This document shows positions 2,309 to 19,883 of a DNA stretch of 27,883 nt, piece after piece. Made by a program: the position numbers and the translations under genes. The number at the start of each line of letters is the position of its first letter. Positions within the stretch are counted from its first letter, which is position 1. Source of the stretch: a bacterium (GTDB lineage Bacteria > SZUA-182 > DTGQ01 > JAFGSM01); the NCBI GenBank assembly GCA_049472355.1, contig JBLIRP010000027.1:1-27883 (forward strand). The letters run 5' to 3'. The notes below the pieces were generated by a model. It searched no databases. It saw only the letters and a list, made by a program, of their open reading frames with translations, and was not told the DNA's origin.

Positions 2309-3313
2309 TCATCGCGACGCATGCAATGCCAGCTTCCGGTCAAGGGTTGCCCTGGAAATACCCAGTATCCTGGCGGACTGTCTCTTGTTCCCGTTCATCT
2401 TCTCGAGGACGATCCTGATGTAGCGCTGCTCAACCTCCTCCAGCGACAAACCCGCATCGACGTCAAGGGAGGACCCGCTCGATTCCGGTTCGGAAGCGGT
2501 GCCCGGGAATTCCATCCTGTCGATGAGGATCGCATCCCCCTTGATGACGTCCCCTTTCGTGATGGCAACGGCGGCATTGACCACACGATTCAGCTCCCTC
2601 AGATTTCCCGGCCAGTGATAGGAAAAGAGCCTGTCTGCCGCCTTCTTGTCCAGCCCCCTGATCGATTTGTCCTGCTTTTGATTCGCCGCCACAATCTCCC
2701 CGGCCACAAGGGTGCGCAGGTCATTGGGCCGCTCCCTGAGAGGGGGGATGCAGATCCTGATGCCGCACAGGCGATAGAACAGGTCCTTCCTGAACCTGTC
2801 GAGCTCCATGAAACTCTGCAACGGGAGATGGGTGGCCGAAATGAGCCGCACATCGGCAATCAGGATCTTCTCCGAACCGAGCCTTTCAAACTCACCATAC
2901 TCCACCGCCCTCAGGATCTTTGATTGTGCGGCAGTGCTCATGTCCGCGATCTCATCGATGAACAGCGTCCCCTTGTCGGCCAGTTCAAACTTCCCCTTCA
3001 CCACCTTTTCGGCGCCGGTGAATGCACCCCTCTCGTGCCCGAACAACTGGCTGTCCAGGAGCGTATCGCTCAGGGCCGCGGCATTGAACGACACAAAGGG
3101 CCCTTCCGACCTCTTGGAGGAGTTGTGGATTGCCTTTGCAAGCAGGGTCTTGCCGGAGCCGGTCTCGCCGTGGATAAGAATGGGCAAATCGGTCTGGGAG
3201 GCGATCTTTGCCATTTCAAGACAGTTCTGCATGGATGCATCCGCTGTCCTGAAGTCGTCGAGGGTGCAGTCGTTCAGGTTCACCTGCTGATCCATGTATC
3301 GGTCTATGTGCAT
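2309..3313 (-). CDS. sigma54-dependent transcriptional activator (bEBP) with AAA+ and Fis-type HTH, no N-terminal sensory domain
   Basis: Walker A GETGSGKT, FGHERGAFTGA, Walker B LFIDEI, FRKDLFYRL, WPGNLREL, C-terminal GNKRQSARILGISRATLDRKL. Only about 20 aa precede the AAA+ domain. Confidence 0.95.
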   Translation of the reverse strand: MHIDRYMDQQVNLNDCTLDDFRTADASMQNCLEMAKIASQTDLPILIHGETGSGKTLLAKAIHNSSKRSEGPFVSFNAAALSDTLLDSQLFGHERGAFTGAEKVVKGKFELADKGTLFIDEIADMSTAAQSKILRAVEYGEFERLGSEKILIADVRLISATHLPLQSFMELDRFRKDLFYRLCGIRICIPPLRERPNDLRTLVAGEIVAANQKQDKSIRGLDKKAADRLFSYHWPGNLRELNRVVNAAVAITKGDVIKGDAILIDRMEFPGTASEPESSGSSLDVDAGLSLEEVEQRYIRIVLEKMNGNKRQSARILGISRATLDRKLALHASR

Positions 3314-3417
3314 GTCAATGATAACCGGCCCTCCCGGTATGTTTTTTCCCGATGCCTTTGCATGACGCTGCCGTACCTGCGGGGGTCACCCCCCGGGGCC
3401 ACCGTGCAGGGCAGGGA

Positions 3418-6400
3418 TCACCTGCATAAACCGCACGGCGCATTTTCAGACTCCTCCCTTATCTTTTCGGAACGTCCGGGCCTTTTCATTTCCTGTTCCA
3501 TGCCGAAGAGCTGGCGGAAAATGCCTCCCAACTCCATGAGATCCTTGTACGTCCCTTGCTCGACAAGGATCCCCTTCTCCAACACCATGACGAGGTCCGC
3601 CTGCCTGATATGGGAGGCCCTGTTATCAACGAAAAAACATGTCCGGCCCGCCAGGAACCTGTTCATATTCTCGATGAACGCGTTTTCGAAATCCCTGTCC
3701 AGGAAGCAGGTGGCATTATCGAAGAGGATGACCGACGGCCGGTGATAGAGTATCCGCGCGATCGCTATGCGCTGGCGTTGACTCGCGGAGAGTGCCAGGC
3801 CGGAGTCTCCCACCCTGGTGTCATACCCGAGGGGCAACCGCTCGATGAATGCATGGGCATTGCTCAGGCGCGCCGCCCAGAGCACCTGATCCATATCCGG
3901 CTCCCACTCCCCCAGTGCGATGTTCTGTGCTATGCTCCCCTCAAAAAGGTGATTCTCCTGGAGCACCAGGCCGCAATGCCTCCGCAGATCACGATGATTC
4001 AATGTCTTCGCATCGACATTGTCATAGAATACCGCCCCCCCGGTTGGGTCCAACAGCCCGGCAATGCACTTGAGCAGCGTAGTCTTCCCCGAACCGTTGC
4101 GTCCCACTATGCACACCCTTTTTCCGGCGGGCACATCAAAGCTGATGTGGTTGAGTATGCACGAAGATTCCGGCCCTGCAAAGCGGAAGCTGACATCCTG
4201 AAAACGAATCCGGCCGTCCAGTGCCCTTACCGGCTTGAGCCCGGAGTGGTTGCTCCCCTGTTCCGGCGCCTGATCCATGATATCCTGCAACCTCCGGGAG
4301 ATCCTCACCAGGGACTGGGCATCCTGCCATCCGGAAAACAAGGTGCTGATGGCCCGGGTGGCAAGGCCCGCCAGAAAACCGAAGGCAACCAATCCCCCTA
4401 TGGTGAGTTTCCAGTGCAGGACCTGACGCGCCCCGATCCACCAGAACAGGGCAATGGCAAAAAGGCCTATCAGACTGACGATCCCGTCATACCACATGAG
4501 GGTGAAACCCGCCTTGACCAGGGGGGCCGTCGCCCCGCGGAATTGCTCCAGTGCCCTTTTTCTCAGCATCTCCTCTGAGCCCGTCGACTTGACGGTCTCT
4601 ATCCCCTGCACGATGTCACGTTCCATGGCGAAGTATTTGGCAAAAAACTCCTCACGCACAGTGAGGTTGAGCTTCAATTGTCGGGTGGAACAGCGCATGA
4701 GCAGGAACAGGAGGGGAATCGTTGCACAAAAGGCCAATCCCATGGCAGGGCTGTAATATGCCATGAGTACCAGGCAGAACACAAGCTGCGTCACTGCCAT
4801 CAGGATATCCGCGCCGTTCTCCACCACGTAATCGAGCAGCGGCCGTATACCCTCGATGGATTGCTGCACAAACACCGTGACTCGCGAATTAAAAAAGGCC
4901 ATGGGGAGATCCAGCAATTTTTTGATAATGGAATCCATGGCTGATATATCGATGTGCGCCGAGGCAAAACTCAGGAGATGTCGCTGGAGCGCCAGGGCAA
5001 TGGTCATCAGGACCATGATCCCCGCCATGGAAAGGGCAAACACCGAAAGCAGCCCCTGGTCCTGGGCGACAATCCCTCCATCGATGAGCCTCTGGATGAA
5101 TACCGGCAGCGAAACCTGCAGGAGGCCGATGACAATGGTCACCCCGATGATCTTGGCGACAACGCCCTTGAAGGGCCGGAAAAAGGGCCAGAGCCATTGC
5201 ACGGAAGAGGTCTCCTCCGAATCCCTCTCCCCCTTGTGCGAGTAATCAAAAAGGGCTGCATACCCCGTCCATTCCCTCTCGAATTCCTTACGTTCCATGC
5301 GCGTGATCCCCACCGCGGGGTCCGCCACATTCACATACCGCCTGTCCATATCGTACAGGACCACCCAGTGGTCCCCCTTCAGATGGACAATGGCCGGCAA
5401 CGGCATTTTGTGCAGGTTGCGTTTGGATGCCTTAATGGCGCGGGCCTCAAGCCCCAGTTCCCGTGCGGCCCGGCAGATCGCCTTGAGGCTGGTGCCTTCT
5501 GCTCCGGTGTATGCCAGTTGACGCAGGTGATTCAATCCCACATGATTTCCGAAAAACCTGCACACCATTGCCAGGCTCGCCACGCCGCAGTCGGTTTCAT
5601 CCCCCTGCCAGATGTAGGGGAAACAGCGTATCCGCTTCTTGTTTCTTTTCACAAAGAGCCCCTCGGGAGAGGCAAAGGGGCCGAGCGTGGCGCTCACTGC
5701 CGTTCCGGTGTATTCCTCCTCGGGTTCCTCCGGTGTGACCGCTTCCTCCACCTCCTTCTCCTCCTGCCGCTCGCTGCCCAGTAGCTCCTGGTGGAAATCC
5801 AGGGGTATGCCATCGATGTGACGGTAGTCGTATTGAGAAATCCTCTCCTCGATCCGGGTTATGAATTCGGGGTAATTATCGATCATCATCCTGAAGCTCT
5901 CCCGCATGAGCATGAGGAGCTTGCATGGGGTAAGTGCCTGGACGGATGCAGAGCGGCTGATCCCCTTAAACATGGATAATTCCCCGAAAAAGTCGCCCTT
6001 TCTCAGGTATGCCCGGTACACCCGGTCATGGCCCTCTCCGGTAAAGACCCTAAGCATTCCATCCTCGACAATGTACATGGGGCCGGCCTCATCCCCCTCC
6101 CGGATGACCACCTCTCCTGTGTTGACAGCAATCTCCCTGGCCTCGGAGAGCAAGGTCTTCAAGGCCGCAATGGGAAGACGGGCGAACGGGGTGTATTCCA
6201 GGAAGAAATTGTGCAGATTGCGGTAGCGTATCTGCAATTCGAAGTATTCACTGATCTCCGGATTTGTGGTGATCAGCCCCTGGAACAGCGAGGCATCGAG
6301 CCTGAAGGCAACGGCCTCGGTGCTGGCGCGGACCGTCGCCATCCTCCTCTTTTCCGTCCGGGAGAGGAGCCCCATCTCCCCGAAGGTATCCCCTGGCCGA

Positions 6401-6624
6401 AGCAGGTAGAGGGATATCTCGTCCCCGTTTGCATCCAGCTTCACCACGCGCGCCCTCCCGGAGGCCAGGACATAGAAGGCATCCGCAGGCTCTCCCTCCT
6501 TCACGATGATATGCCCGAACGGGTAGGAAACCGGCACAAAGCTGCTGATGACCAGTTCTTTGACATCCTTCGGCAGCAGTGCGAAGATCGAAAGATTATT
6601 GAGCACCGAATACTCATTCTCCAT
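3418..6624 (-). CDS. Peptidase-containing ABC exporter (PCAT): 2x cNMP-binding + C39 peptidase + TMD + NBD
   Basis: cNMP motifs FGEMGLL...RMATVRA and FGELSMFKGISRSASVQA. C39 motifs QGDETDCGVASLAMV and LPAIVHLKGDHWVVLYD. Hydrophobic TMD, then NBD with GRNGSGKTT. Start moved to ATG 6624 (AGGAG RBS, just after the upstream TAG). Confidence 0.93.
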   Translation of the reverse strand: MENEYSVLNNLSIFALLPKDVKELVISSFVPVSYPFGHIIVKEGEPADAFYVLASGRARVVKLDANGDEISLYLLRPGDTFGEMGLLSRTEKRRMATVRASTEAVAFRLDASLFQGLITTNPEISEYFELQIRYRNLHNFFLEYTPFARLPIAALKTLLSEAREIAVNTGEVVIREGDEAGPMYIVEDGMLRVFTGEGHDRVYRAYLRKGDFFGELSMFKGISRSASVQALTPCKLLMLMRESFRMMIDNYPEFITRIEERISQYDYRHIDGIPLDFHQELLGSERQEEKEVEEAVTPEEPEEEYTGTAVSATLGPFASPEGLFVKRNKKRIRCFPYIWQGDETDCGVASLAMVCRFFGNHVGLNHLRQLAYTGAEGTSLKAICRAARELGLEARAIKASKRNLHKMPLPAIVHLKGDHWVVLYDMDRRYVNVADPAVGITRMERKEFEREWTGYAALFDYSHKGERDSEETSSVQWLWPFFRPFKGVVAKIIGVTIVIGLLQVSLPVFIQRLIDGGIVAQDQGLLSVFALSMAGIMVLMTIALALQRHLLSFASAHIDISAMDSIIKKLLDLPMAFFNSRVTVFVQQSIEGIRPLLDYVVENGADILMAVTQLVFCLVLMAYYSPAMGLAFCATIPLLFLLMRCSTRQLKLNLTVREEFFAKYFAMERDIVQGIETVKSTGSEEMLRKRALEQFRGATAPLVKAGFTLMWYDGIVSLIGLFAIALFWWIGARQVLHWKLTIGGLVAFGFLAGLATRAISTLFSGWQDAQSLVRISRRLQDIMDQAPEQGSNHSGLKPVRALDGRIRFQDVSFRFAGPESSCILNHISFDVPAGKRVCIVGRNGSGKTTLLKCIAGLLDPTGGAVFYDNVDAKTLNHRDLRRHCGLVLQENHLFEGSIAQNIALGEWEPDMDQVLWAARLSNAHAFIERLPLGYDTRVGDSGLALSASQRQRIAIARILYHRPSVILFDNATCFLDRDFENAFIENMNRFLAGRTCFFVDNRASHIRQADLVMVLEKGILVEQGTYKDLMELGGIFRQLFGMEQEMKRPGRSEKIREESENAPCGLCR

Positions 6625-6629
6625 GTGAG

Positions 6630-7694
6630 CTACTCCTTGTGGATGATGGTTTCCCATCGAACCACTCGCCGTATCTCGGAATCGAAAAGGTGGTCCAGGA
6701 TGGCATCCTGTGCCCTCTGCCGCAACAGGGGATCGTCATCCGACGGCATCACCTTCGTTTGTATCAGGAAAAGACGGGGATTCCCGCCGGCATGAACGGG
6801 GCCGACCAGTTCACCCTTCCGGGAACACAGGAAGGGGCCGTACAGGGAGGGCTCCACCTGCTCGAGGTAAAAATGGTCCTCGCGCACCCGGCATCCCATC
6901 CGTGCCGCCACATCGCCGATCCCTTCCCCATCCTCCCGTACACAGAGCGCAGCCTCCCGGGCCACTTGCTCGTCAGGGGTGGAGAGGCAGAGGCAATCGA
7001 TCCGTATCCACTCGATATTGTGCAATTGTATCTCCTTGCGGATCGCATCCGGCGTACACTGCGCCGTACAGAAATCCCGATACGATGCCTCCATGCAGGC
7101 AAGGGCCTTCAGCCTCTTCCCCATGGCGTCCGGGATGCCATAGGCCTCACCGCATTCCTGTATATTCCGGGTGAACGCTTCGAGCAGGTCCTTCGCATTC
7201 TTTGCCACCGATCCCCCTTCGCCCGATCTTCGTTCATGTATGGATGCACGCACCGCCAGCTTGCGGCACAGGCTGACCAGTCGACCGGAACATACCCCCA
7301 CGGTCTTTACCTCGCCCTCTATTTCCTCTTCAGTTACCGGAAAGCGGTTCGTGATCTCCTCCATCCTGTCCGCCCACCTTTCCCTCAGCAGGGACATGCA
7401 CACATATTTCATCCAATCCACGATTCCCAGCCCCCACTGCCGGAGCCACACCTCCACCTCTTCACCCGAGATCAGGCTCTGCCGGTAGCGATATTCCTTC
7501 AGTGCGTTCTCCATCTCCTCATCCGTGGGGGATTCCCCTGTTTCCCTCATCCGCTTTGCACACGCCAGTCCCTGGCGCGCCTCTTCCCTCAACGGGCCCC
7601 ACTCCCCCCAGGCCATTGCCGCAAAAACCACATCCTCCCAGCAATAGGTCTTCCCCCCCGCGGTAAACACCGCCTGCCCGATCAAGGTCTTCAT
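6630..7694 (-). CDS. Parvulin/PpiC-like foldase-related protein
   Basis: 354 aa with AAGGAGG upstream. The C-terminal part (EQVAREAALCVREDGEGIGDVAA...KGELVGPVHAGGNPRLFLIQTK...LRQRAQDAILDHLF) resembles the PPIase-like proteins that accompany cNMP-C39 exporters. Its stop lies 5 bp before the PCAT start. Confidence 0.6.
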   Translation of the reverse strand: MKTLIGQAVFTAGGKTYCWEDVVFAAMAWGEWGPLREEARQGLACAKRMRETGESPTDEEMENALKEYRYRQSLISGEEVEVWLRQWGLGIVDWMKYVCMSLLRERWADRMEEITNRFPVTEEEIEGEVKTVGVCSGRLVSLCRKLAVRASIHERRSGEGGSVAKNAKDLLEAFTRNIQECGEAYGIPDAMGKRLKALACMEASYRDFCTAQCTPDAIRKEIQLHNIEWIRIDCLCLSTPDEQVAREAALCVREDGEGIGDVAARMGCRVREDHFYLEQVEPSLYGPFLCSRKGELVGPVHAGGNPRLFLIQTKVMPSDDDPLLRQRAQDAILDHLFDSEIRRVVRWETIIHKE

Positions 7695-8591
7695 GGAATG
7701 ACCACGCCTCCTTCACTCAATGAAGTGCGGCACGCACCTTGACTGCACCGGATCGATGGCTTCATAGGAGGGCCATGCCCCCTTCGCAGCCCCGGCCATC
7801 ACCAATACCCTTGCTCCCCCGGGAAACGGCACCGCTATCCCCCGAAAGACCATTGCCTTCCGGATTCAGGTGATGCATTTGCACATACGGAATGGCACGC
7901 CGGGCCATGCCGGTCCGGCCGGACCTGCGGCGGGCCATAGAGGTCTTCCGGGCGATCCCTGTATGTACAAGCACGGACATTACCTCCGGATGATGCATAC
8001 GTATGCCGATGAAAACGAGTACTCTTATCACTTATATCGGCAATTGGCGCCGTCCGGCTTCCATGCCCCAGACAGGGAATCGGGCAAAAATCACGCCTTG
8101 ATTCATCTTAAAAATCACCCGTGAATAGCCATTTCGCCCCCTGATAAATAAACCAAAACTGCCAACGACATCGGATTTATTAAGGTGTTTCCCTTGCGCA
8201 GCAAGTATCTTTAGTCAGGTAATTTCTTATAGTCCCTTCAATCTCTGGGTCAACTGCAACGATATCTCATAAATATGATTCCTGGATGAACCCTAAAATG
8301 TCATTTTATATTTCATTAGGTAAGGGTTGATCGAATATAAATGATAGATTATAGTATACTTATAACATGACTAAGACTGATATAAGAACATTTGAAATAA
8401 TTGTTCGAGTGCTCGTCCATCGCGGTAGACCGCATAATATGTTCAGACCTATAGTTTGATATACACCAAAAGATAAATTTGATTACTAAGACATTATCAC
8501 AAAATAGTTGCCAGAGTTCGCTCAGGGGAATAGGGGGGAGTGACGGATTTATTAAGCGCGGATTGTAAATAGCTTTGTGCCTAAGTCTATC

Positions 8592-9593
8592 TTAATGGAG
8601 AACCGATAACCCGTGGAATTTTATGCCCACAGCATAGAGGGAAGGCCGGCTGAAGACTGGCAACGGCTTGAGGAGCACCTCATTGGCACCGCTGAACTCG
8701 CCGCTGCATTTGCCGCCGAATTCGGATGCGCGCAATGGGGCCGATTGGCGGGTCTGTGGCATGATGTCAACGGTCTTTTTAAGTGAGCCATTTTCGGTCG
8801 TGAAAAGTGAGCCACCTGGTACTTCATTTTGGCTCATTTCCGTCCCTTCCTTTCCGACTTTTTCACAAAGCCTGTAGCTGTTGCCCCGGATGTTGATGAT
8901 AATGCTGTGGTGCAGCAAACGGTCCAGGAAAGCCGTTACGATGACCGGGTCATGAAACAATTCGGTCCAATCGGAGAATGCCTTGTTGGATGTGATAACG
9001 GTGCTTGCTTTCTCATAGCGATTGGCAATGAACCTGAAAAAGAGATTGCACTCCTCCCGGCCTATTGGCGTGTAGCCAACCTCGTCCACAATCACCAGCG
9101 CCGATTTATTGTAGCCTCTGCCCCTGCCTTTTCGCTCAGTTCCATGATCCTTTTTCAACTTTCCGATAAGGTCCTCCATGGTGGTAAAATAGATACTCAT
9201 ACCGGCTTGGCACGCCTTCAGGGCAAGTGATACTGCCAGGTGAGTCTTCCCTACCCCGGGCGGGCCCAGAAAAATCACATTGCCTTTTGGCCTGATAAAG
9301 GTAAGATCAAACAGGGACATCACCTTTTGGCGATCCAGCTTGGGTTGAAAGGTAAAGTCAAACTCCTCAATACCCTTGATAAAGGGGAGCCCCGATATCT
9401 TTAATGATGTTTCAACGCGCCGCTGTTCCCGGCAGGCTATCTCTTCTTCCAGGAGCTCATCAAGAAAGCCCAGATAGCTTTTCCCCTTCTCCTGTGCCGC
9501 CTGCATCACGCCTTCAAGGATTTCACCCATCCGGGGGAGCCTCAGCCGTGCCAGGCTGGTCTGAATACGATCGAGAACCAGGGCATCACTCAT
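8592..9593 (-). CDS. istB: IS21 helper ATPase IstB (ORF reads through the IS end into flanking DNA)
   Basis: LGPPGVGKTHLA, VIVDEVGY, ITSNKAFSDW, AFLDRLLHH, GNSYRL. The last ~57 codons lie outside the element. Confidence 0.9.
   Translation of the reverse strand: MSDALVLDRIQTSLARLRLPRMGEILEGVMQAAQEKGKSYLGFLDELLEEEIACREQRRVETSLKISGLPFIKGIEEFDFTFQPKLDRQKVMSLFDLTFIRPKGNVIFLGPPGVGKTHLAVSLALKACQAGMSIYFTTMEDLIGKLKKDHGTERKGRGRGYNKSALVIVDEVGYTPIGREECNLFFRFIANRYEKASTVITSNKAFSDWTELFHDPVIVTAFLDRLLHHSIIINIRGNSYRLCEKVGKEGTEMSQNEVPGGSLFTTENGSLKKTVDIMPQTRQSAPLRASEFGGKCSGEFSGANEVLLKPLPVFSRPSLYAVGIKFHGLSVLH
8613..8765 (+). pseudogene. cas3: 5' fragment of type I-C cas3 (HD nuclease domain), truncated by IS21
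   Basis: GTG start gives MEFYAHSIEGRPAEDWQRLEEHLIGTAELAAAFAAEFGCAQWGRLAGLWHD, the typical Cas3 HD N-terminus (YAHS...EHL...AGLWHD). It is cut at the HD motif by the IS end TGTCAA, and the frame stops at 8786 inside the IS. Confidence 0.88.
8765..8817. repeat. IS21 terminal inverted repeat (IRR)
   Basis: TGTCAACGGTCTTTTTAAGTGAGCCATTTTCGGTCGTGAAAAGTGAGCCACCT. Confidence 0.85.
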
Positions 9594-10866
9594 ATCCGCA
9601 CCTCCCCCACTGCATGATCATAGATATACGAAGGCCTGATCTCGACATCCATATCATAGAGCGGTTTCACCGGGCTGATCGTGCATTTTGCGCGACCCTT
9701 GCAGCGTCTGCCCTGGCCGTATTTGAGCCGGTTCATCTCGCGATCCTTTCTGAGCGATTCATAGAATCGTGTATCCTGAACCAGGTGCCCTTTGCCTTCA
9801 GGAATCTCATAGGTCACCACCAAACGATCATCATTGAAGATCCTCATGACCTTTTCCTTAACCCGCAGAAGAAGATCCTTCCCCACGAGGGTATGGGAGA
9901 CCACATAGCTGTTGCCTTCAAAACGAACGGTGCAGTCCTTGCACACCGTGCGATAAACTCGCTAGGACGTGTCAAATGCCAGGGAAGGCAGCGCCTGTAA
10001 CCGCGATCGCTCTCGCTCGTATCGGTGCAGCACCACTTCGTGGGTTGTCCCGTGAATCCGGTTGTCTTTGAGCTGAAGCCATTGAAGCAGATCTCGATTA
10101 GCCGTCTCACGGCAGACAAATCCGTATCCCCGCCAAAACCCTTCCCGGATAAAGTGATAGGGCCGCTCAATCTTCCCCTTCACCCAGGCGGCATAGGCAG
10201 GGGCAACCTGTGGCTTAAAACCATAATGCAATGCAAATCCCTTCAGTGTATCGTTGAACGTGTCCTTGACGGCTATCCTTCTGATATAGACGTTTTTCAT
10301 CCGGTCATAGAGGATCTCCTCGGTCACGCCGCCGAAATAGTCGAAGGCACGGATATGGCAATCAAGAAAAGTCGGCATATCACACCGATGAACAAACTCC
10401 GCGTAGATCCGCCGGGAATAGCCCAGAATCATCGAAAAAAGATACAGTTTCAGTATGCTGCCATCGGCGTTCTCAACCTGGAATTCCCCAAAATCCACCT
10501 GCGACTGAAATCCCGGTTCCGTCTCAAAACGCATGTACGCAACCCGCTGCCGCTCATCTTTGATAGCATGAACCGCCCTCTTTACAATCTCGTAGCTGCC
10601 GGAAAAACCCATCGGCTGAAGACGATCGTATATCCAGGTGGCCTTATACTGCATATCTTCCTGAAGCCACGCTGCAATGTTGCCCTGGTACGGATCCAGC
10701 AAGCTCTTCCTGTCTATTTTAGTCCGATCATGCTCTGGATATCCCCCATGCTCAAGGTACTTCTTTACCGTATTGCGGCTTATACCCATCTTCTTTGCGA
10801 TCTGCCGCTGGGTCAATCCCTTTCTCTGCATCACCACTATGTCCAAAACGGTCTCCTTTTTTTCAT
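9590..10866 (-). pseudogene. istA: IS21 transposase IstA, interrupted
   Basis: HTH (RQIAKKMGISRNTVKKYL), RFETEPGFQSQVDFG, YDRMK, KGKIER. An in-frame TAG at 9962-9964 splits ORFs 9962-10846 and 9590-9946, which are in the same frame. The RBS-preceded ATG at 10866 is out of frame across an A7 run. Confidence 0.88.
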
Positions 10867-10939
10867 CCTATCCACCTTGTTTAGACTGAGATAAAAAATC
10901 ATAGTATAATTCTTTTTCTCAGTAACTCCACCTCCCAAA

Positions 10940-10992
10940 GTGGCTCAATTCCTCACGACCATTTTTGGCTCAGTTTATCACGACCACTTACA
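10940..10992. repeat. IS21 terminal inverted repeat (IRL)
   Basis: Reverse complement TGTAAGTGGTCGTGATAAACTGAGCCAAAAATGGTCGTGAGGAATTGAGCCAC aligns with the other end. Confidence 0.85.
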
Positions 10993-11155
10993 CCCCCGCG
11001 CGGGGGCGTGGATTGAAACACTACAACGTATGCGGAAAAAGCCTGTATCAATTCGCGTCGCCCCCCGCGCGGGGGCGTGGATTGAAACGTTGACACGCGG
11101 ATAGTATTATAGAGTTCAAACAATCGCCACCGAACGGGATCATTGGTTAAAAAAC
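10993..11155 (+). CRISPR. Trailer-end remnant of a type I-C CRISPR array (truncated repeat, full repeat, degenerate terminal repeat, 2 spacers)
   Basis: Full 32-nt repeat GTCGCCCCCCGCGCGGGGGCGTGGATTGAAAC at 11057-11088. The same repeat lacking its first 5 nt at 10993-11019 abuts the IS. Spacers are 11020-11056 (37 nt) and 11089-11122 (34 nt). A degenerate repeat ATCGCCACCGAACGGGATCATTGGTTAAAAAAC follows at 11123-11155. Confidence 0.88.
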
Positions 11156-11161
11156 GGGACC

Positions 11162-11482
11162 ATGATCCTTTTCACCGAAACTAAAAACACGGCGATCACA
11201 GGCGATCTGAACCTGCTCAAACCCAAACCTCGGGCATTGGTGGATGACTTCATGAAAAGGCGATCACTGCCGGACGATTCCGATCAGGATTTCATCCACG
11301 CCATGAAGGAGGTCCTTTCCGGTCTCACCAAGTTCTCAGTAAAGATCGCTGACCTGCGTACAGCGCTCCTCTCCGGTGGATCACCAGCCACTCCGGCTGA
11401 GATGAAAAAGCGGTTCGAGGAATATCTGGCTTGGATTATCAGGGGCAAAGAGCCTGGCAAGGTCCGGATTGTATTGGAGTAA
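11162..11482 (+). pseudogene. 3' remnant of a DUF6079-like (BREX-associated BrxC/PglY-type ATPase) gene
   Basis: The C-terminus ...[41 protein letters not shown]...[12 protein letters not shown] matches, from recall, the end of these large proteins. Only about 100 aa are present. Confidence 0.65.
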
Positions 11483-11488
11483 GCCATG
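11445..11488 (+). repeat. 44-bp imperfect direct repeat, copy 1
   Basis: GCAAAGAGCCTGGCAAGGTCCGGATTGTATTGGAGTAAGCCATG, 39/44 identical to 12987-13030, with the last 21 nt identical. Confidence 0.9.
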
Positions 11489-11544
11489 AAAACACACGAA
11501 TATGCCATCATGATACCAAAGGGCGACGACCTGTCAAAACACGA

Positions 11545-12951
11545 ATGAAACAGAACAATTACGTCATGACAGCCGAACAGGTGAAGCTCCTCATTCGCTA
11601 AGGCGAAGGGCTTACCGTTGAGTTCAAGGAGCGATACACGCCCCGCATTGATGAAGACATTGTGGCCTTTGCCAATGCAAAGGGTGGAACACTCCTTCTG
11701 GGTGTGCAGGATGACGGGAGAATCAATGGCGAGAATCTCACCAACGACATGAAAGCCAAAATCAACAGCCTGGCCAGAAACTGTAAACCCTCTATTCCCT
11801 TGCATCTTTCTCAGATCGACAAGGTCGTGGCCGTTGTCGTTCCGGAGGGCACGGAGAAACCCTATTCATGCAGCTCCGGCTACTATCGGCGCCTCGATGG
11901 AACTACTCAGAAGGTGAGCCACGACGAGCTGCGCATCATGTTCGCCGAGAACGAACCCCTGCCATTTGAGGAAAAAACGGTCAAAGGTTTTACCTTCGAC
12001 GATATTTCGAGGGGCAAGATCAGCGCATTTGCCAAGGAAGCAGGAATCCGCATTGGTTCCATCGCTATGCCTGACTTCCTTCGCAGCCTGAAGGTTGCAG
12101 ACGAAAGCCAGGTCAAAAATGCGGGCATCCTCTTTTTCGCCAAAGAGGTATATCAACATTTGCACCAGGCACAAATGACGCTTTTGGCCTTCAAAGGAAC
12201 GGACAGACTCCACATATACGACCGCCATGATGTACGGGACGATCTGCTTACCCAGTTCAACGAGGCTGTCGCCTTCCTAAAAAAGCATCTGAATCTCCGC
12301 AGTGAAATTCGAGGCCTGAACCGCGAGGACATCTACGAAATCCCAATCGAAGTCCTCAGAGAGGCGATGGTTAATGCGCTTATGCACCGAGATTATAGCA
12401 TCACCGGCACCCAGGTCAGCGTAGAGGTCTTTGACGACCGGGTGGAAATCATTAATCCGGGAGGTTTACCCAAAGGTCTGTCCATTCAAGATCTCGGCAG
12501 GGTTTCCATCAGGCGCAACGAACTGATTGCGGACCTATTCTTCCGTCTCCACAAGGTCGAGCGGATCGGCATGGGTATTCTGAAAATGAAATAGGTTATG
12601 ATAGCCGCCGGACTCCGTGAGCCTATTTTTGAGCCCGATGGTTTCTTCAGTGCAATATTCCACCGTTCCCCTGAGCTTGCCATGAAGGAAGCAAAGCACG
12701 GCATCGTGGCCGATGGAAAACAGGGCAAAGCTAAAACTGCCCAGAAAACTACCCAGAAAACTACCCAGAAAATAATTGCCATGATTCAGAGAAACCCGGA
12801 AATAACACGTCAGGAACTGGCAGCAGAACTTGGGATTACGGACAGCGGGGTTAAATATCATTTGAAGAAGATGCAGGATAAGGGCCTACTCTGTCGTGTC
12901 GGACCGGATAAGGGGGGGTATTGGAAGGTAGTCCGGCAGGATACGGAATAG
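11545..12951 (+). pseudogene. AlbA_2 (Schlafen-like) + HATPase_c_4 + wHTH protein with two in-frame stops
   Basis: MTAEQVKLLIR*GEGLTVEFKE...IVAFANAKGGTLLLGV, REAMVNALMHRDYS, NPGGLP, ERIGMGI, LKMK*VMIAAGL, and a C-terminal HTH ending VGPDKGGYW. Stops are TAA 11599-11601 and TAG 12592-12594. Confidence 0.85.
12733..12772 (+). repeat. 12-bp coding tandem repeat (AAAACTRCCCAG x3)
   Basis: Encodes KTAQ-KTTQ-KTTQ-K in the linker before the HTH. Confidence 0.85.
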
Positions 12952-12986
12952 ACGCCATGGCCTTTTTCACTGCGCGAGAAGCTGAA

Positions 12987-13030
12987 GCAAAGAGCCAGGC
13001 AAGATACATATTGTATTGGAGTAAGCCATG
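12987..13030 (+). repeat. 44-bp imperfect direct repeat, copy 2
   Basis: GCAAAGAGCCAGGCAAGATACATATTGTATTGGAGTAAGCCATG (KEPGKIHIVLE* plus ATG). Confidence 0.9.
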
Positions 13031-13117
13031 GGAAAAATGGGATCAAAACGCCATTAACAGGATCATAAATGGCTATTATCTGATGCGAGAATATATTGTT
13101 TTTTGGAGAATCTCCGG

Positions 13118-13402
13118 ATGAAATTCATTCACTCCGCAGACCGGCGGATCGGAATGATGGCCGATTTTGTCGGCCAGGCCGGGCAAAAGGGTCCGGGATG
13201 AGCGCTTGGCGGCAGGCAGGCGACTGGTCGATGCTGCAAACAGTGAAGGGGCAGAATTCATCCTGATTGCCGGGGACCTTTGCGAGACAATGCCGTTGAC
13301 CGGACTTTGATACAGAAAACCGTAAACATCATTAGCCGGTTTCACAGTCCGGTGTACCTTATTCCGGGTAATCACGATCCCTTGGTTACCAACGGTGTGT
13401 AA
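13118..13402 (+). pseudogene. SbcD/Mre11-like metallophosphoesterase nuclease, frameshifted 5' fragment
   Basis: GGAG RBS. Pieces across frames read MKFIHSADRRIGM.., RDERLAAGRRLV..AEFILIAGDL, NAVDRTLIQKT..PVYLIPGNHDPL, covering motifs I, II and III (GNHD), then TAA. Confidence 0.8.
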
Positions 13403-13570
13403 TGTTAAGGGAAACTGAAAATATGTCTCAAAGAGAAAGAAATAATATAGCCCGGAAAGGTTTATTCCCTTCAAAACAAAGAAACCTTTTTGAAGGGTCC
13501 TCATGTAATGAATTTCATTCTTCATTGGGATGCGTAGGTCACGGGTGTTTAAACGAAACGCGATTCAATT

Positions 13571-13599
13571 TTGACAACCTCTTTTAATCCCTTTATAGT
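13571..13599 (+). promoter_or_regulatory. sigma70-type promoter upstream of the TPR-J-GrpE-Hsp70 operon
   Basis: TTGACA-17 bp-TATAGT. Confidence 0.75.
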
Positions 13600-13829
13600 A
13601 ATGTCGTAATGACATGATAGTATTCAAGAGTGATGCTGCCTGCAGGATGATGATTGCCTATCTCAGGAGATCCCTTTTGACGAATGCGGCGGTAATGATT
13701 TACGCTCCAAAGAAAATCTTCCTTGGAATCATCCTTCATCCTTCCAAATCATTGTTACGTGATTTGGAGGAATCGGCCCGGCCCGCCGGGTGTTTCGCTG
13801 ATCAATTATATAAATCGCATTGAAGTCCA

Positions 13830-16325
13830 ATGGGCAAGAAGAAACGTGACAAGGCCCGCAAAAAGGCCAAAAAGATCCACCTTGCCGATATCCCCCCGGA
13901 GGGGCTCCGGAAAAATGCGGCGTTATATCTGGAGAGGGGTCAATACAAGAAGGCCATTGAAAACTATAAGGCCATCCTCTCCAGCCACGGGAATCATGAA
14001 GATGTTCTGGACAAACTGCACATGGCCTACGCCGGTCGCCTCAGGGAGCTGGCCGGCAAGGGGATGCATCGCGAGGCAGCCGAACTCTGGGAGCACATCG
14101 CGAAGGTGTACCATTACGTGCAGGACCTTCCCTTTTATATTGAGCGTCTCATCCAGGCAGGTGATTACCCGAAGGCCGTTCGGACCTTGTATCAGAATCA
14201 GGAAAAAATCAATGATTCCAAATGGTTTCAAAGGCAGGAATCCGTCCTGGCCCTGTTTGTCCTGGCCGGTGTCCCGGACATCGGTGATTTGATCCCCGAC
14301 GAATCCCTGATTCTGCGGCAGAGGTCGCTGGTCCAAAAGGCGCTGGAGGCGCTGTATAAGGGTGATGAGGACCGGGCATCCGAGATGATCCGTCCGGTTG
14401 GAATGAATTCTCCATACAAGGACTGGAAGCTCCTCATCAAGGGGCTTGTCGCCTTCTATGCTCACCGGGATGAGGAGGCACTGGATATCTTCCGGCGAAT
14501 CCCCGATGATTCGCCCTTAACCCGGATCGTCAATCCCTTGCGCTTCGTTCTGGAACCATCAAACGCCGCCATGCCGAAGGGGACCGGGCCTTTTCCCCGC
14601 CAGGAGGAGATCTCCTTATTGAAGGAGGTCCTGGGAGACAGGGCCGGGTTCCTGTCCCTGCAATGGCACCTGGCGACGGCGGAGGACGGCCGGAATGCCA
14701 GGGATGCGGTCGGGATCTTAAAAAGAATGGCCGATGATCTTCCTGCGGACTCGGACCAGGAGCTGTTAAGGCGCTACTGCGTCCATTTTCTCATGCGCTC
14801 AGGCAAAGAAGATTTTCTTCGGAAATATCGGTCCCTCTGGGGCAGCGCACCGGATCCCTTTGAAGGATCAAGGCTCCAGGCCCTCATGCAGGAGAGGGAG
14901 TGTGATTGGATCGAGGCCAACGGCTACTGGGATGACTGCATCGATCTGCTGAAAAAGGACCGGACCCGGCGGTATTTTCCCGACCGGCGGCAGGAGAACC
15001 TGGCCATTGCCCAGATTCTGAGGCATATGGCGGACAACATGAAAAAGGACCTGCATTCCGAAGATGCCCTTTTTGACCATATCTTCGGCGGTGATGCCGA
15101 GGATGAGGAAGATGAAGAAGATTTTATCTCGTATCTCTTGGAGAGTTTGAAATTCGATCCCGGGGATGTTCAGACCTACAGAAAGATCGTAGATTATTAC
15201 AAGGAATGCGGGGACAAGAAGAATGTCGCCAAATGGCTGGAGCGATTGATCCAGGTATGCCCGGGGGATATGGAGGCGGTGCTGGAGGCGGCAAGCCTGG
15301 CCTTTATGAGAAAGTCCTTCCAGAAATCCCTCCGTTTTCTGGAAAGGGCCTTACACCATGATCCGCTGAATGAAAAGGCGCGCAGGCTGAAGATCGCCAT
15401 TCACATTGTGTCCGCGCATCAGCGTTTCAGGCAGAAGAAATACAACCTGGCGCGCAGGGATTTTGAAAGGGCCGGTTCGATCATCACGTCGCAGAGCAAA
15501 AACGGGCGATTCGAGATCATCCGTGGCATAGGAGAAATGGCCATGGGTGATGAGAAAAGGGGGCGGGATCTCATTGAACGCGGGTTGACACTGCAAGGGG
15601 ATAATCCGTGCCGTTATTTCCGTATCCCCATCGAGGGGAGTATCTGGGAGGTCCCGGAAGACAAAATCGCACCCTATCATGAATGCCTCCGGACGATGCT
15701 GCAGGGGCAACCGACCATCGAGCAGGTCGGGCAACTGCTGGACATCGCCTTTTCCTGTTTCCTGACCTATATGGAGATTCCCATCCATACCCGGCGGAAA
15801 ATGGGGATCATCGGGCCTTACTTGGACAGGGCCTTACGCCGATGCATGTTTTCGGAAGAAGACCTCCAGGATATATGTCATTTTCTGGCCATTGTCCACC
15901 TGCATCCCCTTTTGGTCCGGTATGCCGGAGAAGGGAAAAGGCGGTACCCGGAAAATCGGAGGTTTCGCTTTTACAGCCTCATCGGCAGGCACAGGGGAAT
16001 GCCCTGCCCGGAGGATGATGAGGGGTGTGACCTGATCGAGGAATTGGACATAAGAAGCGCGAAGCCGAAGGAGAGGAGAATGGTTTTCGAAATCGATCAA
16101 TTTATGCAGGGCCGGCATCCCCTGTATTCCTTGACGCTTGAAGAAATAGGCCGTTTGAGCATGTCCGGGGAGCTGACGTCTGACAAGGGGGGCATACTGC
16201 CGGCATCTCAACAGGCCGATGACAAAGGGGTTATATCGCCGGGACCTCACCCGTCCGCTGGTTCTCAATCCGGGCCCCAAAAGGGATCCAGGCAGTTGTC
16301 CCTATTCAGGGAGATGGATGAATGA
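13830..16325 (+). CDS. Large TPR/helical-repeat protein
   Basis: 831 aa with TPR-like segments (LERGQYKKAIENYK; LKFDPGDVQTY; FLERALHHDPLNEKA), an acidic patch and a low-complexity tail ending QLSLF. Confidence 0.85.
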   Translation: MGKKKRDKARKKAKKIHLADIPPEGLRKNAALYLERGQYKKAIENYKAILSSHGNHEDVLDKLHMAYAGRLRELAGKGMHREAAELWEHIAKVYHYVQDLPFYIERLIQAGDYPKAVRTLYQNQEKINDSKWFQRQESVLALFVLAGVPDIGDLIPDESLILRQRSLVQKALEALYKGDEDRASEMIRPVGMNSPYKDWKLLIKGLVAFYAHRDEEALDIFRRIPDDSPLTRIVNPLRFVLEPSNAAMPKGTGPFPRQEEISLLKEVLGDRAGFLSLQWHLATAEDGRNARDAVGILKRMADDLPADSDQELLRRYCVHFLMRSGKEDFLRKYRSLWGSAPDPFEGSRLQALMQERECDWIEANGYWDDCIDLLKKDRTRRYFPDRRQENLAIAQILRHMADNMKKDLHSEDALFDHIFGGDAEDEEDEEDFISYLLESLKFDPGDVQTYRKIVDYYKECGDKKNVAKWLERLIQVCPGDMEAVLEAASLAFMRKSFQKSLRFLERALHHDPLNEKARRLKIAIHIVSAHQRFRQKKYNLARRDFERAGSIITSQSKNGRFEIIRGIGEMAMGDEKRGRDLIERGLTLQGDNPCRYFRIPIEGSIWEVPEDKIAPYHECLRTMLQGQPTIEQVGQLLDIAFSCFLTYMEIPIHTRRKMGIIGPYLDRALRRCMFSEEDLQDICHFLAIVHLHPLLVRYAGEGKRRYPENRRFRFYSLIGRHRGMPCPEDDEGCDLIEELDIRSAKPKERRMVFEIDQFMQGRHPLYSLTLEEIGRLSMSGELTSDKGGILPASQQADDKGVISPGPHPSAGSQSGPQKGSRQLSLFREMDE

Positions 16326-16415
16326 GCATACCATATAGAGATGAATGAGCACACCCATATGGATATGAACATCCAAGAAAATTTCGATGCTCCACCTAGT
16401 TAAGGAGGGAGATGG

Positions 16416-16730
16416 ATGAGCACACCGTACGAGATTCTGGAGGTCGAGCCCTCCGCAACAGACGAGGAGATTAAAGCGGTCTACATCGAAAAGGTAAAGC
16501 GTTACCCGCCCGACAGGTTTCCCGAGACGTTCAAAGAGATCAGGGATGCCTATGAAAAGATCGCCACCCTCAAACATAGGATCGATTACCGGCTCTTTTC
16601 GACGGATCCGCCGGATCTGAACAGGCTTCTGGAGCGCCTTCTTTCGAAAGGCGAGAGAAAACGCCTCTCACCTCAATGCCTGGTTGAGACGGCACTGCAG
16701 GGCTTTCAGACACCAAAGCAACACGGATAA
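16416..16730 (+). CDS. Small J-domain (DnaJ-like) protein with non-canonical PPD motif
   Basis: PYEILEVEPSATDEEIKAVY...KRYPPDRFPETFKEIRDAYEKI; AAGGAGG RBS. Confidence 0.85.
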   Translation: MSTPYEILEVEPSATDEEIKAVYIEKVKRYPPDRFPETFKEIRDAYEKIATLKHRIDYRLFSTDPPDLNRLLERLLSKGERKRLSPQCLVETALQGFQTPKQHG

Positions 16731-16751
16731 CGGAAGGGGATAGACCAAGGG

Positions 16752-17654
16752 ATGAACAACGACGAATCAAAAACACCCTGCATAGAGAATGCCGCCGCTG
16801 ATGGTGAGAATCTGCCGGGGACGGTTCAACGGGGGACGGATGCCTCCGGATGCGACCAGCCCTCCGCTTTTGGCGTGGGTTCGTCGAACGATGAAGAACA
16901 GCAGGTTGCGGATGCCCATGAACATGAGAGAGCGCACGGGGAATGGGCGGAAGGGTTCAAAGAGGAGATGGTATCCAGGTTTCGCCTCTGGCTCGACAGC
17001 CAGGACATCGCGCAGGTGGCCGGGCGGGTGTTTGAAAATGCCGAAGGCACCTTCGCCCCCCCTGAAGCAATGGACCTGTTTACCCTTTTTTCCGAACTGA
17101 CCGCCTTGAAGCAGGAGGTCAAGATCGCTTCCAGGCAATGGAAGACCGGGGCGGACCAATGGGAAGGGACAACCCGGGGCCTGCAGAAGGCCTTGGATGC
17201 CTTGCAGGCGGAGCAGGCCCAAAGGCGCCGGGAAGCGGCCGAGGTTAAGAACGCCTTTTTGCGCCCCCTGTTGAATGACATCCTGGACATCCGCGACCGG
17301 ATGGAACAGGGGATCGATGCGGCCAGACACAATCACCCTTCCCTGCTGACAAGGGTGTTGGGCCGCGGGAAAGAGACGGGAGGGCTTATTGAAGGGCTCA
17401 TAGAGGGGCACAAGATGACCTTGAGGCGTCTTGACCGCGTGCTGGCATCTTACGGGGTCACACGGATCGAGGCGGAAGGGAAGGGCTTCGACCCTTTCCG
17501 CATGAGGGCGGTTGAGGTCGAGAGCCGGGGCGGCCTCCCCAATGGTTTGGTGATAGAGGAAATCCGCAAGGGCTTTTTGTTTTACGAAGAGGTCCTGCGG
17601 CCGGCGGAGGTCAAGGTGAATAAAATTGAGACACAAGAGACCAAAGATCAATAA
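16752..17654 (+). CDS. grpE: Nucleotide exchange factor GrpE family, N-terminally extended
   Basis: C-terminal GKGFDPFRMRAVE...VIEEIRKGFLFYEEVLRPAEVKVNK, with a coiled-coil middle. Confidence 0.88.
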   Translation: MNNDESKTPCIENAAADGENLPGTVQRGTDASGCDQPSAFGVGSSNDEEQQVADAHEHERAHGEWAEGFKEEMVSRFRLWLDSQDIAQVAGRVFENAEGTFAPPEAMDLFTLFSELTALKQEVKIASRQWKTGADQWEGTTRGLQKALDALQAEQAQRRREAAEVKNAFLRPLLNDILDIRDRMEQGIDAARHNHPSLLTRVLGRGKETGGLIEGLIEGHKMTLRRLDRVLASYGVTRIEAEGKGFDPFRMRAVEVESRGGLPNGLVIEEIRKGFLFYEEVLRPAEVKVNKIETQETKDQ

Positions 17655-17697
17655 ATGGCTTTTTATGAAGTGATCATGATTGCGTGAGGTAAAAGAC

Positions 17698-19473
17698 ATG
17701 GAAACCATCATAGGTATCGACTTAGGGACCACCAATTCGGAGGTGGCCGTCATAAAGGATGGCAGGGCGGTGGTGATCGGGGATGACAACGGTGAGAAGA
17801 TCATGCCCTCGTTTGTGAGCCTGTCCGATGACGGGGAGATCCTGGTGGGCGTGCCTGCCAGAAACCAGTACGCGCTTTATCCCGAGCGTACGGTCAGATC
17901 CATAAAGCGCAAAATGGGGACGGACGAGCGGGTGTCCCTCGGTGATGCGCTGTATACGCCTCAGGAGATATCGGCCATCATTTTGAGGGCATTAAAGCAA
18001 AGGGCGGAGGGATTTCTGGGGCATGAGGTGAAAAAGGCGGTGATCACCGTGCCCGCCTATTTTTCCGACGCCCAGCGACAGGCGACCCGCGACGCAGGGG
18101 AGATCGCAGGGCTGGAGGTGGCGCGCATCATCAACGAGCCGACCGCCGCATCCCTGGCCTATGAAACAGGGCACCATAAGGAGCAGAAGATCCTGGTCTA
18201 CGATCTGGGCGGGGGGACCTTCGATGTCTCGGTGGTGAGCATCCATGCCGGCCTGGTGGAGGTCCTCTCCAGCCACGGGAACAACCATCTGGGCGGGGAT
18301 GATTTTGACGAAAGGATCTACGCCTTTATACTCCAACACCTCAAAGATACACTGGGGAAGCAAGAGGCGGAAGGACTGAGCAGGGAGAGGCGTTTTCACG
18401 CCCGTCTGATCCGCTCGGCGGAGAAGGCCAAACGGGAGCTGAGCGACCGGCCCTTTGCCCTGGTTGAAGAGGAATATATGGCGAAGCAGGGAGGCAAACC
18501 CTTCCACCTGTCATTGGAGATCTCCAGGGCGGCGTATGAGGAGATGATCCATCCCTACATTGAAGAGACCCTGGAGGCCATTCATATCGCCCTGAAGGGG
18601 GCCGGCCTGACACCGTCTCAGATGGACAAGGTCCTGCTGGTGGGCGGGGCGACCCGCACGCCCCTTATCACCAGGATCATCGAAGAAAGGCTGGGCATCA
18701 CCCCCAGGCAGGAGCTGGAGCCGGACCTCTGCGTGGCCATGGGCGCGGCGGTCCAGGCGGGTATGATCGCGGGCGAGGAGGTCTCTGCGGTGCTGGTGGA
18801 TATTACCCCCTATACCTTCGGAACAAGCTACCTGGGTGAATTGGATGGAGATCCCCTTTATCCCCATGTATTCGCCCCGCTGATCAAAAAGAACACCCCC
18901 ATCCCGGTGTCCAAGAGCGAGGTCTTTTTTACCCTCCGCGACCGGCAGAAGGCGGTGGATGTAAAGGTCTATCAAGGTGAAAGCAGGGACGCGGAAGAGA
19001 ATGCCCTGATCGGGGAGTTCAGGGTCGAGGGGCTCGGCCCCATGCCTGCGGGCAATGAGATCATATGCCGATTTGATCTGGACATGGACGGCATCCTCCG
19101 GGTGTCCGCTGTTGAGAAAAGGACGGGCCTGAAAAGGAATATCGTCATCGAGAACGCCCTGTCTCAATTCGGGGTGGAGGAGAAAGAGCGGGCCAGGGAG
19201 AGGGTAGGACGTCTTTTTGAAACCGGAGGGACTGGGGAGACGGGTCGGGCGAATCAACCCCTGCTGACCAAGGAGGCCAGGGAAAGGATCGTGCAGGGCA
19301 AGGCCCTGGTTGAAAAGGCGGAAAAGATGTTCCCGGGTATCCCCGAAGAGGACAAGGAAGAGGTCATCAACCTCATCGAGGGGGTCAACGACGCCATCCG
19401 CAACGAAGCGTATGACAGCCTGGCCGCCCGTGTGGAGGACCTTTCGGAAATCCTCTTTTACCTGGGGGCTTGA
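17698..19473 (+). CDS. Hsp70 family protein (specialised DnaK paralogue)
   Basis: [51 protein letters not shown], and SBD VYQGE. Start set at ATG 17698 (GAGGT RBS). Linker [11 protein letters not shown] and a short lid differ from canonical DnaK. Confidence 0.95.
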
Positions 19474-19474
19474 G

Positions 19475-19765
19475 ATGGATTTTCGCTGCCCCACCTGCAA
19501 GGCGCCATACACGGAAGGGACACAATGCTACCGGTGCCGGTGCGACCTACGCCCATTGCTGGCCATCCTCAGGCAGGCCACGGAATTGCGGAATCAATCG
19601 CTTTGCCTCCTCACGCAAGGGGAAATAGAACCGGCCAAGGATGCCATCCAAAGGTCCCTGTTTCTTTCACGTGACCCAAAATCCGAGGAGATTTATGCCT
19701 TGATCTGTGCATTTGACGGGGATTTCGGCAAATGCCTCCGGTATTTGAGTGGGGTCAGGTCTTGA
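19475..19765 (+). CDS. Small Zn-ribbon + TPR-like protein
   Basis: ATG 1 bp after the Hsp70 stop. MDFRCPTCKAPYTEGTQCYRCRCDL has two CxxC motifs, followed by a helical TPR-like segment; 96 aa. Confidence 0.75.
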   Translation: MDFRCPTCKAPYTEGTQCYRCRCDLRPLLAILRQATELRNQSLCLLTQGEIEPAKDAIQRSLFLSRDPKSEEIYALICAFDGDFGKCLRYLSGVRS

Positions 19766-19883
19766 ATTATAAGCGCAACACCTTACACGTATCCGACAAG
19801 GCACCCTGCAGGACGTTTCGGCATCGAGTCAAAATTCCACATTCAAGGCAGTCAGTCGTATTTCTCAAGACCGGCCAAAAACT

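Follow-up and report, generated by a model that had tools for sequence, protein, structure and literature searches.

Probable IS21-linked loss of a type I-C CRISPR-Cas locus, and recurrent cas3 stubs that end at the HD motif

The locus described here raises the question of how the first codons of a type I-C cas3 gene and the inside of a CRISPR repeat came to lie at the two ends of one IS21-family element, with the genes expected between them missing. The window, i.e., the whole 27,883-nt stretch of DNA that was analyzed, belongs to a 3.49-Mb assembly (G000) of 148 contigs, each longer than 5 kb, with a completeness of 87.5%; its features are collected in Table 1. Our reading is that the window probably holds what remains of a dead type I-C CRISPR-Cas locus within a decaying defense island, with IS-linked loss as the likely cause.

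Table 1. Positions of the features discussed, in window coordinates
Feature	Coordinates	Strand	Remarks
Window			Whole contig C69 of assembly G000
Variable region (island)	8127..19880		~11.7 kb; absent from same-genus genome G001
istB	8592..9593	-	No stop within IS; read-through into antisense of cas3 stub
cas3 5' stub	8613..8764	+	51 codons, GTG to HD motif
IS21-family element	8765..10992	-	2228 bp, TGT...ACA; single copy in assembly; no target duplication
istA, broken	9590..10866	-	In-frame TAG at 9964-9962; ATG at 10866 out of frame
Type I-C repeat without first 5 nt	10993..11019	+	Last 27 nt of 32-nt repeat
Spacer	11020..11056	+	37 nt; no target found
Complete type I-C repeat	11057..11088	+	32 nt
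Probable second spacer	11089..11122	+	34 nt; not brxC-like; no target found
Hybrid of repeat-like and brxC-like sequence	11123..11155	+	Second, IS-free junction
BREX brxC (DUF6079) 3' fragment	11156..11482	+	Remainder of BREX not found in assembly
44-nt brxC 3' end, first copy	11445..11488	+
AlbA_2/RecG-C-like regulator gene	11566..12951	+	Split by TAG at 12592-12594
44-nt brxC 3' end, second copy	12987..13030	+	89% identical; closes AlbA cassette

At the left junction, positions 8613 to 8765 translate to a sequence ending in LAGLWHD, the Asp codon of which is completed by the first base of the IS. The stub matched TIGR01596 (E = 1.8e-5) and the PADLOC model Cas3c (E = 2.7e-10) and is 74.5% identical to the intact Cas3 of locus L039, in which the downstream ORFs were judged by eye to be cas5, cas8, cas7, and cas4; a type I-C Cas3 is present in the window as this fragment alone. 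As the earlier note had pointed out, the fragment is hidden antisense beneath the istB read-through ORF. The junction was crossed with 0 differences by contigs from runs X1 (8019-8810) and X6 (8230-8810), which belong to two studies. The same note had the IS cutting cas3 exactly at its HD motif; the junction does stand at that codon, but the cutting of a then intact gene is doubtful because IS-free stubs ending there are common, as described below. A second decayed cas3 stub further upstream was considered and rejected, since a DNA profile of 32 sequences gave no match in 8001-8612.

Members of the IS21 family have TG...CA ends with subterminal repeats and generate a short target duplication. 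The element in the window has such ends, with subterminal repeats at 10941-10989, and belongs to the family by its gene content, istA (DDE) followed by istB (AAA+ ATPase), with IstA matching NF033546 (E = 9e-81; 271.6 bits against a cutoff of 160) and IstB matching NF038214 (E = 2e-77; 259.8 bits against a cutoff of 200). Its left end was set by copies with different flanks in G001, G007, L119, and L120, and loose contig ends at 8765 and 10992 agree with both of its ends. The transposase is not intact: the TAG in istA falls where three relatives have Tyr, and the start codon is put out of frame at an A7 run that is A8 in L120. Recoding of this TAG was rejected, as it is an ordinary stop here, found in 319 of 1482 long frames of the genome. 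The open end of istB is shared by homologues, 36 of 119 of which have 275 aa and also run up to the IS end. Because the element holds istA and istB only, the cas piece and repeats lying outside, it is not a CRISPR-associated transposon.

No target duplication was detected at the IS for lengths 1 to 20, in agreement with what had been noticed earlier from the flanks, nor for lengths 3 to 12 with the ends shifted by up to 3 nt. Two full-length relatives occur among 401 genomes, L120 with a 5-bp duplication and L119 without, so that a 5-bp rule is seen in one of two copies. The duplication at the window IS was probably lost by deletion. Relatives of the element showed no preference for CRISPR repeats or cas3, the flanks in G001, G007, L119, and L120 and the sequences at the loose ends at 8765, 10992, and 10994 being unrelated in this small sample. 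Among plasmids, 22 records matched the IS, none of them covering 80% of it. A lone, ~56-bp end of the window IS without a body is present at ~4538-4617 of L022 (G001), and its flanks were also seen in runs X3, X5, and X6.

The right IS end had been placed inside a CRISPR repeat, and this was borne out by the truncated repeat that directly follows it. Repeats that differ from it by 2 to 3 nt come after cas1c-cas2, in the same orientation, in the I-C loci L019 and L034; the side missing from the window is therefore the leader side. The repeat was found nowhere else in G000 with up to 6 mismatches allowed. Searches of viral contigs with 22- and 23-nt parts of the spacers gave 0 exact matches, the first spacer had one chance-level phage match (E = 0.5) and the second none, and no self-target was found with up to 9 mismatches. 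The stretch 11123-11155, with which the earlier note closed its span, is indeed repeat-like (2 of 2000 shuffles were as good) but can be read equally well, in frame, as brxC (8 homologues at 48% identity; 3 of 5000 shuffles), and 11089-11122 is not brxC-like (18%); the third repeat position is thus where the array passes into brxC, in a separate junction that involves no IS. Because of this fusion, the remnant may not be the original trailer end. Positions 11057-12325 lie within one exact contig of X1. The other BREX-locus proteins that were tried gave no match in G000.

In the same-genus genome G001, the flanks of the variable region are only ~70 bp apart, so the CRISPR remnant sits within an island, at the joins of which no terminal repeat was seen. 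This is a decaying defense island, in which istA and the AlbA/RecG-like gene are broken and BREX is reduced to the 3' end of brxC. Also inside the island, at 13830-19473, is a cluster encoding an 831-aa TPR protein, GrpE, and a 597-aa Hsp70, with no PADLOC match. Elsewhere in the window, at 2309-7694, a sigma-54 activator lies next to a 1079-aa peptidase C39 ABC exporter with two cNMP-binding domains and a 354-aa ORF without a family match, a region conserved in G001.

The missing cas genes were sought throughout G000. Profiles of Cas1 and Cas7 had 0 matches. For the Cas3 HD profile, 8 weak matches all fell below the cutoff, the stub among them, and tblastn with 6, then 18, Cas proteins from related loci returned the stub only. 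Nine array-like loci were detected elsewhere in the assembly, none looking like a CRISPR array. No second copy of the window IS was found and no contig end carried IS words, so the genome-wide check suggested at the outset, for the rest of cas3, further IS copies, and further repeats, turned up nothing in G000. With cas5c, cas8c, cas7, cas4, cas1, cas2, and the leader all absent, the window holds a remnant and not a working system, and the locus is incapable of interference or adaptation. No strain retaining the ancestral locus turned up, and five family-level relatives gave no cas3 match above the cutoff, though one of them (G004) retains cas7-cas4-cas1-cas2. As separate observations, contigs C9, C64, C70, and C83 of G000 carry tandem 75- to 81-bp repeats sharing a GCTTCGCTCCGCC-type motif that are not CRISPR-like, and I-C loci that look decayed occur in relatives, namely, L018 (G013; 4941-6932, a broken cas3 and one repeat), L019 (G004; 12770-16249, cas7 to cas2 and one repeat), and L020 (G005; 99-200, a short array with no adjoining cas gene seen).

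As G000 is incomplete and its contigs all exceed 5 kb, a contig with the cas genes might be unbinned, and short-read assemblies break at 2.2-kb repeats; the window could then be an assembly collapse of two identical IS copies around a wholly or partly intact cas operon. We compared contigs from 4 of 20 runs, X1, X3, X5, and X6, with the window. None among the contigs listed from these four runs bridged the right junction, which lies inside a repeat, a result that suits a collapse. Neither the start of the repeat nor the continuation of cas3 was found beside an IS end among the 24 loose ends listed at 8765 and 10992 from the four runs (59 further loose ends and 198 further contig pieces belong to the same comparison), and the pattern named beforehand as contradicting a loss, the cas remainder beside another IS end, did not appear among these 24. 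Uneven cover inside the IS, seen in the same comparison, was set aside as having no evidence value. Since G000 contig ends also lack IS words, and since even a collapsed locus would still be interrupted at the stub and within the repeat, we consider a collapse unlikely.

Absence of the duplication points instead to a deletion at the IS. An inversion or translocation mediated by the IS, which would leave the cas genes elsewhere beside a reciprocal IS copy, could produce the same unmatched flanks, since these also result from recombination between IS copies according to the accessible text of PMC11708052, but 3.49 Mb yielded neither a cas gene nor a second IS copy, and the co-linear flanks are accounted for by a simple loop-out; we regard such a rearrangement as very improbable. 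It is just as improbable, in our estimate, that the cas genes were gone earlier and that the IS took a short stretch or entered the break without a duplication. IS-free decayed I-C loci do exist in the class (L018, with its broken cas3 ~200 bp from the one repeat, and L019), the window holds a second, IS-free junction of its own, and insertion without duplication is proposed in the part of PMC11708052 available to us; however, this history requires an extra event, and the repeat is cut precisely at the IS end. We thus keep to a deletion linked to the IS. The loss of cas genes, leader, and leader-side spacers proposed in the earlier note fits flanks that stand in the right order and orientation with these elements missing between them, which is support for the loss of the locus and not proof; the route may have been recombination between IS copies or an adjacent deletion.

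The left junction led to a broader pattern. A search for short homologues of the stub returned 18 proteins of 50 to 77 residues, most ending near the HD motif, which lacked genomic context and some of which may be contig ends. We then assembled 86 loci with a window-type cas3 start (6 of 7 metagenome loci and, of 99 genome loci, the 80 that matched best), leaving out L036, which ends at the match and duplicates L034. By open frame, 44 were continuing, 40 were broken, and 2 ended with the contig; a profile check, with five hand corrections (L065, L068, L100, and L071 over-extended; L112 a frameshift only), gave 35 stubs, 4 genes broken elsewhere, and 45 continuing genes. These calls were based on frames, profile domains, and the distance to the next gene instead of blastn break points, a measure confounded by the continuing L037 and L110, which also lose DNA similarity near the HD motif.

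All 35 IS-free stubs stop close to the HD Asp codon, at approximately -25 to +35 nt, the IS junction of the window being at -1. A new gene begins within 130 nt in 31 of them; among the 35, a script resolved 21 loci, 6 of which have the stub stop at most 8 nt from the start that follows. What follows the stub is a different cas3 (18 loci), a cas5-first module (7), an accessory gene (7), e.g., Bro-N, PIN, Phd/ParE, or REP transposase, or an unknown gene (3); where the locus was long enough, the cas5-first order was cas5, large subunit, cas7, cas3, cas4, cas1. Behind the 39 broken starts, the genes can be grouped into 17 families at 45% identity, so the join was formed many times. Stubs are stacked in L031 and L034, and a stub precedes an intact cas3, directly or across a cassette, in L044, L052, L058, and L104. 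Internal frameshifts in at least 4 of the 35 argue against a role of the stub protein. By eye, the window IS end was not seen in the 60 nt after any of the 35 stubs. Elsewhere, L028 (G029) has a lone stub at 4899-5048 ahead of an IS3 remnant, and the stubs P0004, P0007, and P0011 have a common tail, NEIxxKGF, directly past the break, which suggests one common inserted repeat.

As a control, an N-terminal profile was run on 401 genomes of the Nitrospirota-side phylum, giving 50 places, 27 of them in frames shorter than 170 residues (some at contig edges), compared with 73 places for a 51-residue internal helicase segment, 0 of which were in frames shorter than 400; the profile was made from short proteins and the draw of genomes overlaps the source of the 86 loci, so the comparison serves as a control and should not be counted as a replicate. 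Within the 86 loci, recruited by the cas3 N terminus, which affects the comparison, short frames held 48 of 90 cas3 N-terminal places versus 0 to 2 of 23 to 53 places for each other cas segment (20 segments). Altogether, there is good support for a recurrent pattern of cas3 remnants that end at the HD motif.

The clade to which the 5' sequence of the window belongs comprises 23 stubs and 12 intact genes. Since stubs make up 16 of its 20 nearest sequences, these comparisons moderately favor a cas3 start that was already a stub before the IS arrived; in the window itself, the bases past the HD codon are gone. A single origin of the stubs gained no support from the tree, which requires 18 changes between stub and intact states, 183 of 500 shuffled labelings being as low (147 columns, bootstrap unsettled), and which shows no more than that stubs are not clustered. 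A phage origin was rejected, as none of 10 pattern matches in viral contigs was confirmed. A G-quadruplex hot spot at the HD codons is a weak candidate: among intact genes, the HD block ranked first in G4 propensity in 13 of 20 close and 3 of 14 distant ones, and GGG codons were enriched (38/90 versus 181/752), but just 4 of 19 genes beat synonymous recoding at ≤2/400, and silent-site identity was not raised (0.32 versus 0.26 to 0.39); the score of the window itself was 0.97. The stub-ending region, ~60 nt of a 2.2-kb gene, is a target of ~3% for an IS junction arriving by chance; the IS junction on this codon reflects either a general hot spot or chance, and the IS relatives show no preference for the site.

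We compared the 31 loci with full Cas1, Cas7, and Cas3, the pairs of which are not independent. Cas1 was at least 75% identical in 85 pairs, and in 76 of these Cas3 was less than 45% identical; loci with 75 to 91% identical Cas1 mostly had Cas3 of 22 to 45% identity. L042 and L079, for instance, share 90% of Cas1 and 77% of the 5' DNA, against 21% of Cas7 and 24% of Cas3. Over the 31 loci, identities of Cas7 and Cas3 were correlated (Spearman 0.92) and those of Cas1 and Cas3 were not (-0.18), so the interference genes appear to move as a block between the stub and cas4/cas1. Module exchange as the probable origin of the stub loci is well supported by these comparisons. Whether it extends to the general statement that Nitrospirota and other sediment bacteria swap the whole interference module of their type I-C loci between two fixed arms, at a break point not described before, with the window stub as one such scar, is a proposal that we advance tentatively, at somewhat less than even confidence.

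In such a swap, one arm would be cas4/cas1 and the other the first ~55 codons of cas3. Truncated at the HD motif, the start of the former cas3 would be kept as a scar, serving as a reusable recombination handle and as the carrier of the promoter. The route that we favor, as a proposal, would pair homologous crossover in cas4/cas1 with joining by microhomology between the G-rich HD codons and the purine-rich start region of the incoming gene; stub-bearing donors, once made, might spread by ordinary double crossover. A related concept is homology-facilitated illegitimate recombination. Escape from anti-CRISPRs is a plausible driver of these swaps.

Some of the modules concerned are of interest in themselves. 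L042, L045, L063, L093, and L074 (in the first ~6 kb after the stub) contain I-C-like modules of cas5, large subunit, cas7, and cas3, L074 having been followed as far as the large subunit. The large subunit of these cas5-first modules, 667 to 756 aa, had no NCBIfam match and a weak Cas_Csd1 Pfam match in one of four scanned; their Cas5 and Cas7 fall under the I-C cutoffs, with Cas1 (in L042) and the repeats being standard I-C. Bro-N, RhuM, and four-helix-bundle genes form recurring cassettes inside I-C operons in L039, L045, L063, L064, L079, L093, and L096.

For the window, the following order of events is proposed. The locus would have opened with a cas3 stub ending at the HD motif, the scar of a replaced interference module (cas3-cas5-cas8-cas7), or otherwise with an intact cas3. 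IS21 would then have entered at one of the two points, normally making a 5-bp duplication. Either a deletion next to the element or recombination between it and a second copy would have cleared the interval between the HD codon and base 6 of the repeat, i.e., ~8 to 9 kb of cas genes (a size taken from comparison with L034) along with the leader and the spacers next to it. Independently of any IS, the array became joined at its third repeat to the final ~120 codons of brxC; this junction is plainly visible, and it probably arose as a separate event. istA was broken at that time or later.

The deletion in the window is one further IS-linked loss of CRISPR, of small importance alone; such deletions are known and represent ordinary decay. 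The recurrent cas3 scar is possibly undescribed: no description of cas3 stubs ending at the HD motif, and no IS21 case of CRISPR-cas loss, was found in the literature searched, with subscription papers and supplements largely outside it. The stub pattern provides a visible, countable scar for replacement of the interference module, and it makes swaps of class 1 effectors with the spacers kept testable through defined arms. For annotators, short "Cas3 HD" genes ahead of I-C operons would be scars rather than split cas3 genes, and stubs lead to divergent, cas5-first I-C modules whose large subunit is missed by the Cas8c model. In archaeal comparative work by Garrett and colleagues in 2011, adaptation and interference modules were reportedly exchanged between CRISPR-Cas loci. 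The loci described here resemble that exchange in that the ancestry of Cas1 is uncoupled from that of Cas3 and Cas7, and they differ in that it occurs within type I-C and leaves a fixed scar made up of the initial ~55 codons of the former cas3.

The nearest parallel to the window deletion is in the accessible part of PMC7708916, which describes IS6110-mediated CRISPR-cas deletions in the Mycobacterium tuberculosis complex, with a cut csm6 joined to a repeat, explained by recombination between two copies and with loss biased to the cas side. In both cases a single IS links a truncated cas gene to what is left of the repeat-spacer array; unlike that system as presented there, the element here is IS21 (IstA/IstB) rather than IS6110, the locus is type I-C rather than III-A, and an ancestral strain is missing. 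The portion of PMC11708052 that we could consult reports IS-linked deletions without duplications in 14 of 14 cases, and here, too, an absent duplication marks a deletion beside an IS. In PMC10359306, as far as its available text goes, cas genes are inactivated by ISs, so that CRISPR-Cas is likewise knocked out, through insertions there and through a deletion here; IS21 has 0 occurrences in the main text of each of these two papers. Lastly, the available part of PMC2853133 describes insertion with long target duplication among restriction-modification genes, the duplicated stretches being at least 30 bp and without a mobile gene. The 44-nt brxC ends around the AlbA gene are similar and suggest a comparable insertion, as do the stub-cassette-cas3 layouts of L052, L058, and L104. 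In contrast to that process as described, 25 of the 35 stub loci show a different cas module after the stub, which amounts to substitution at a fixed break point.
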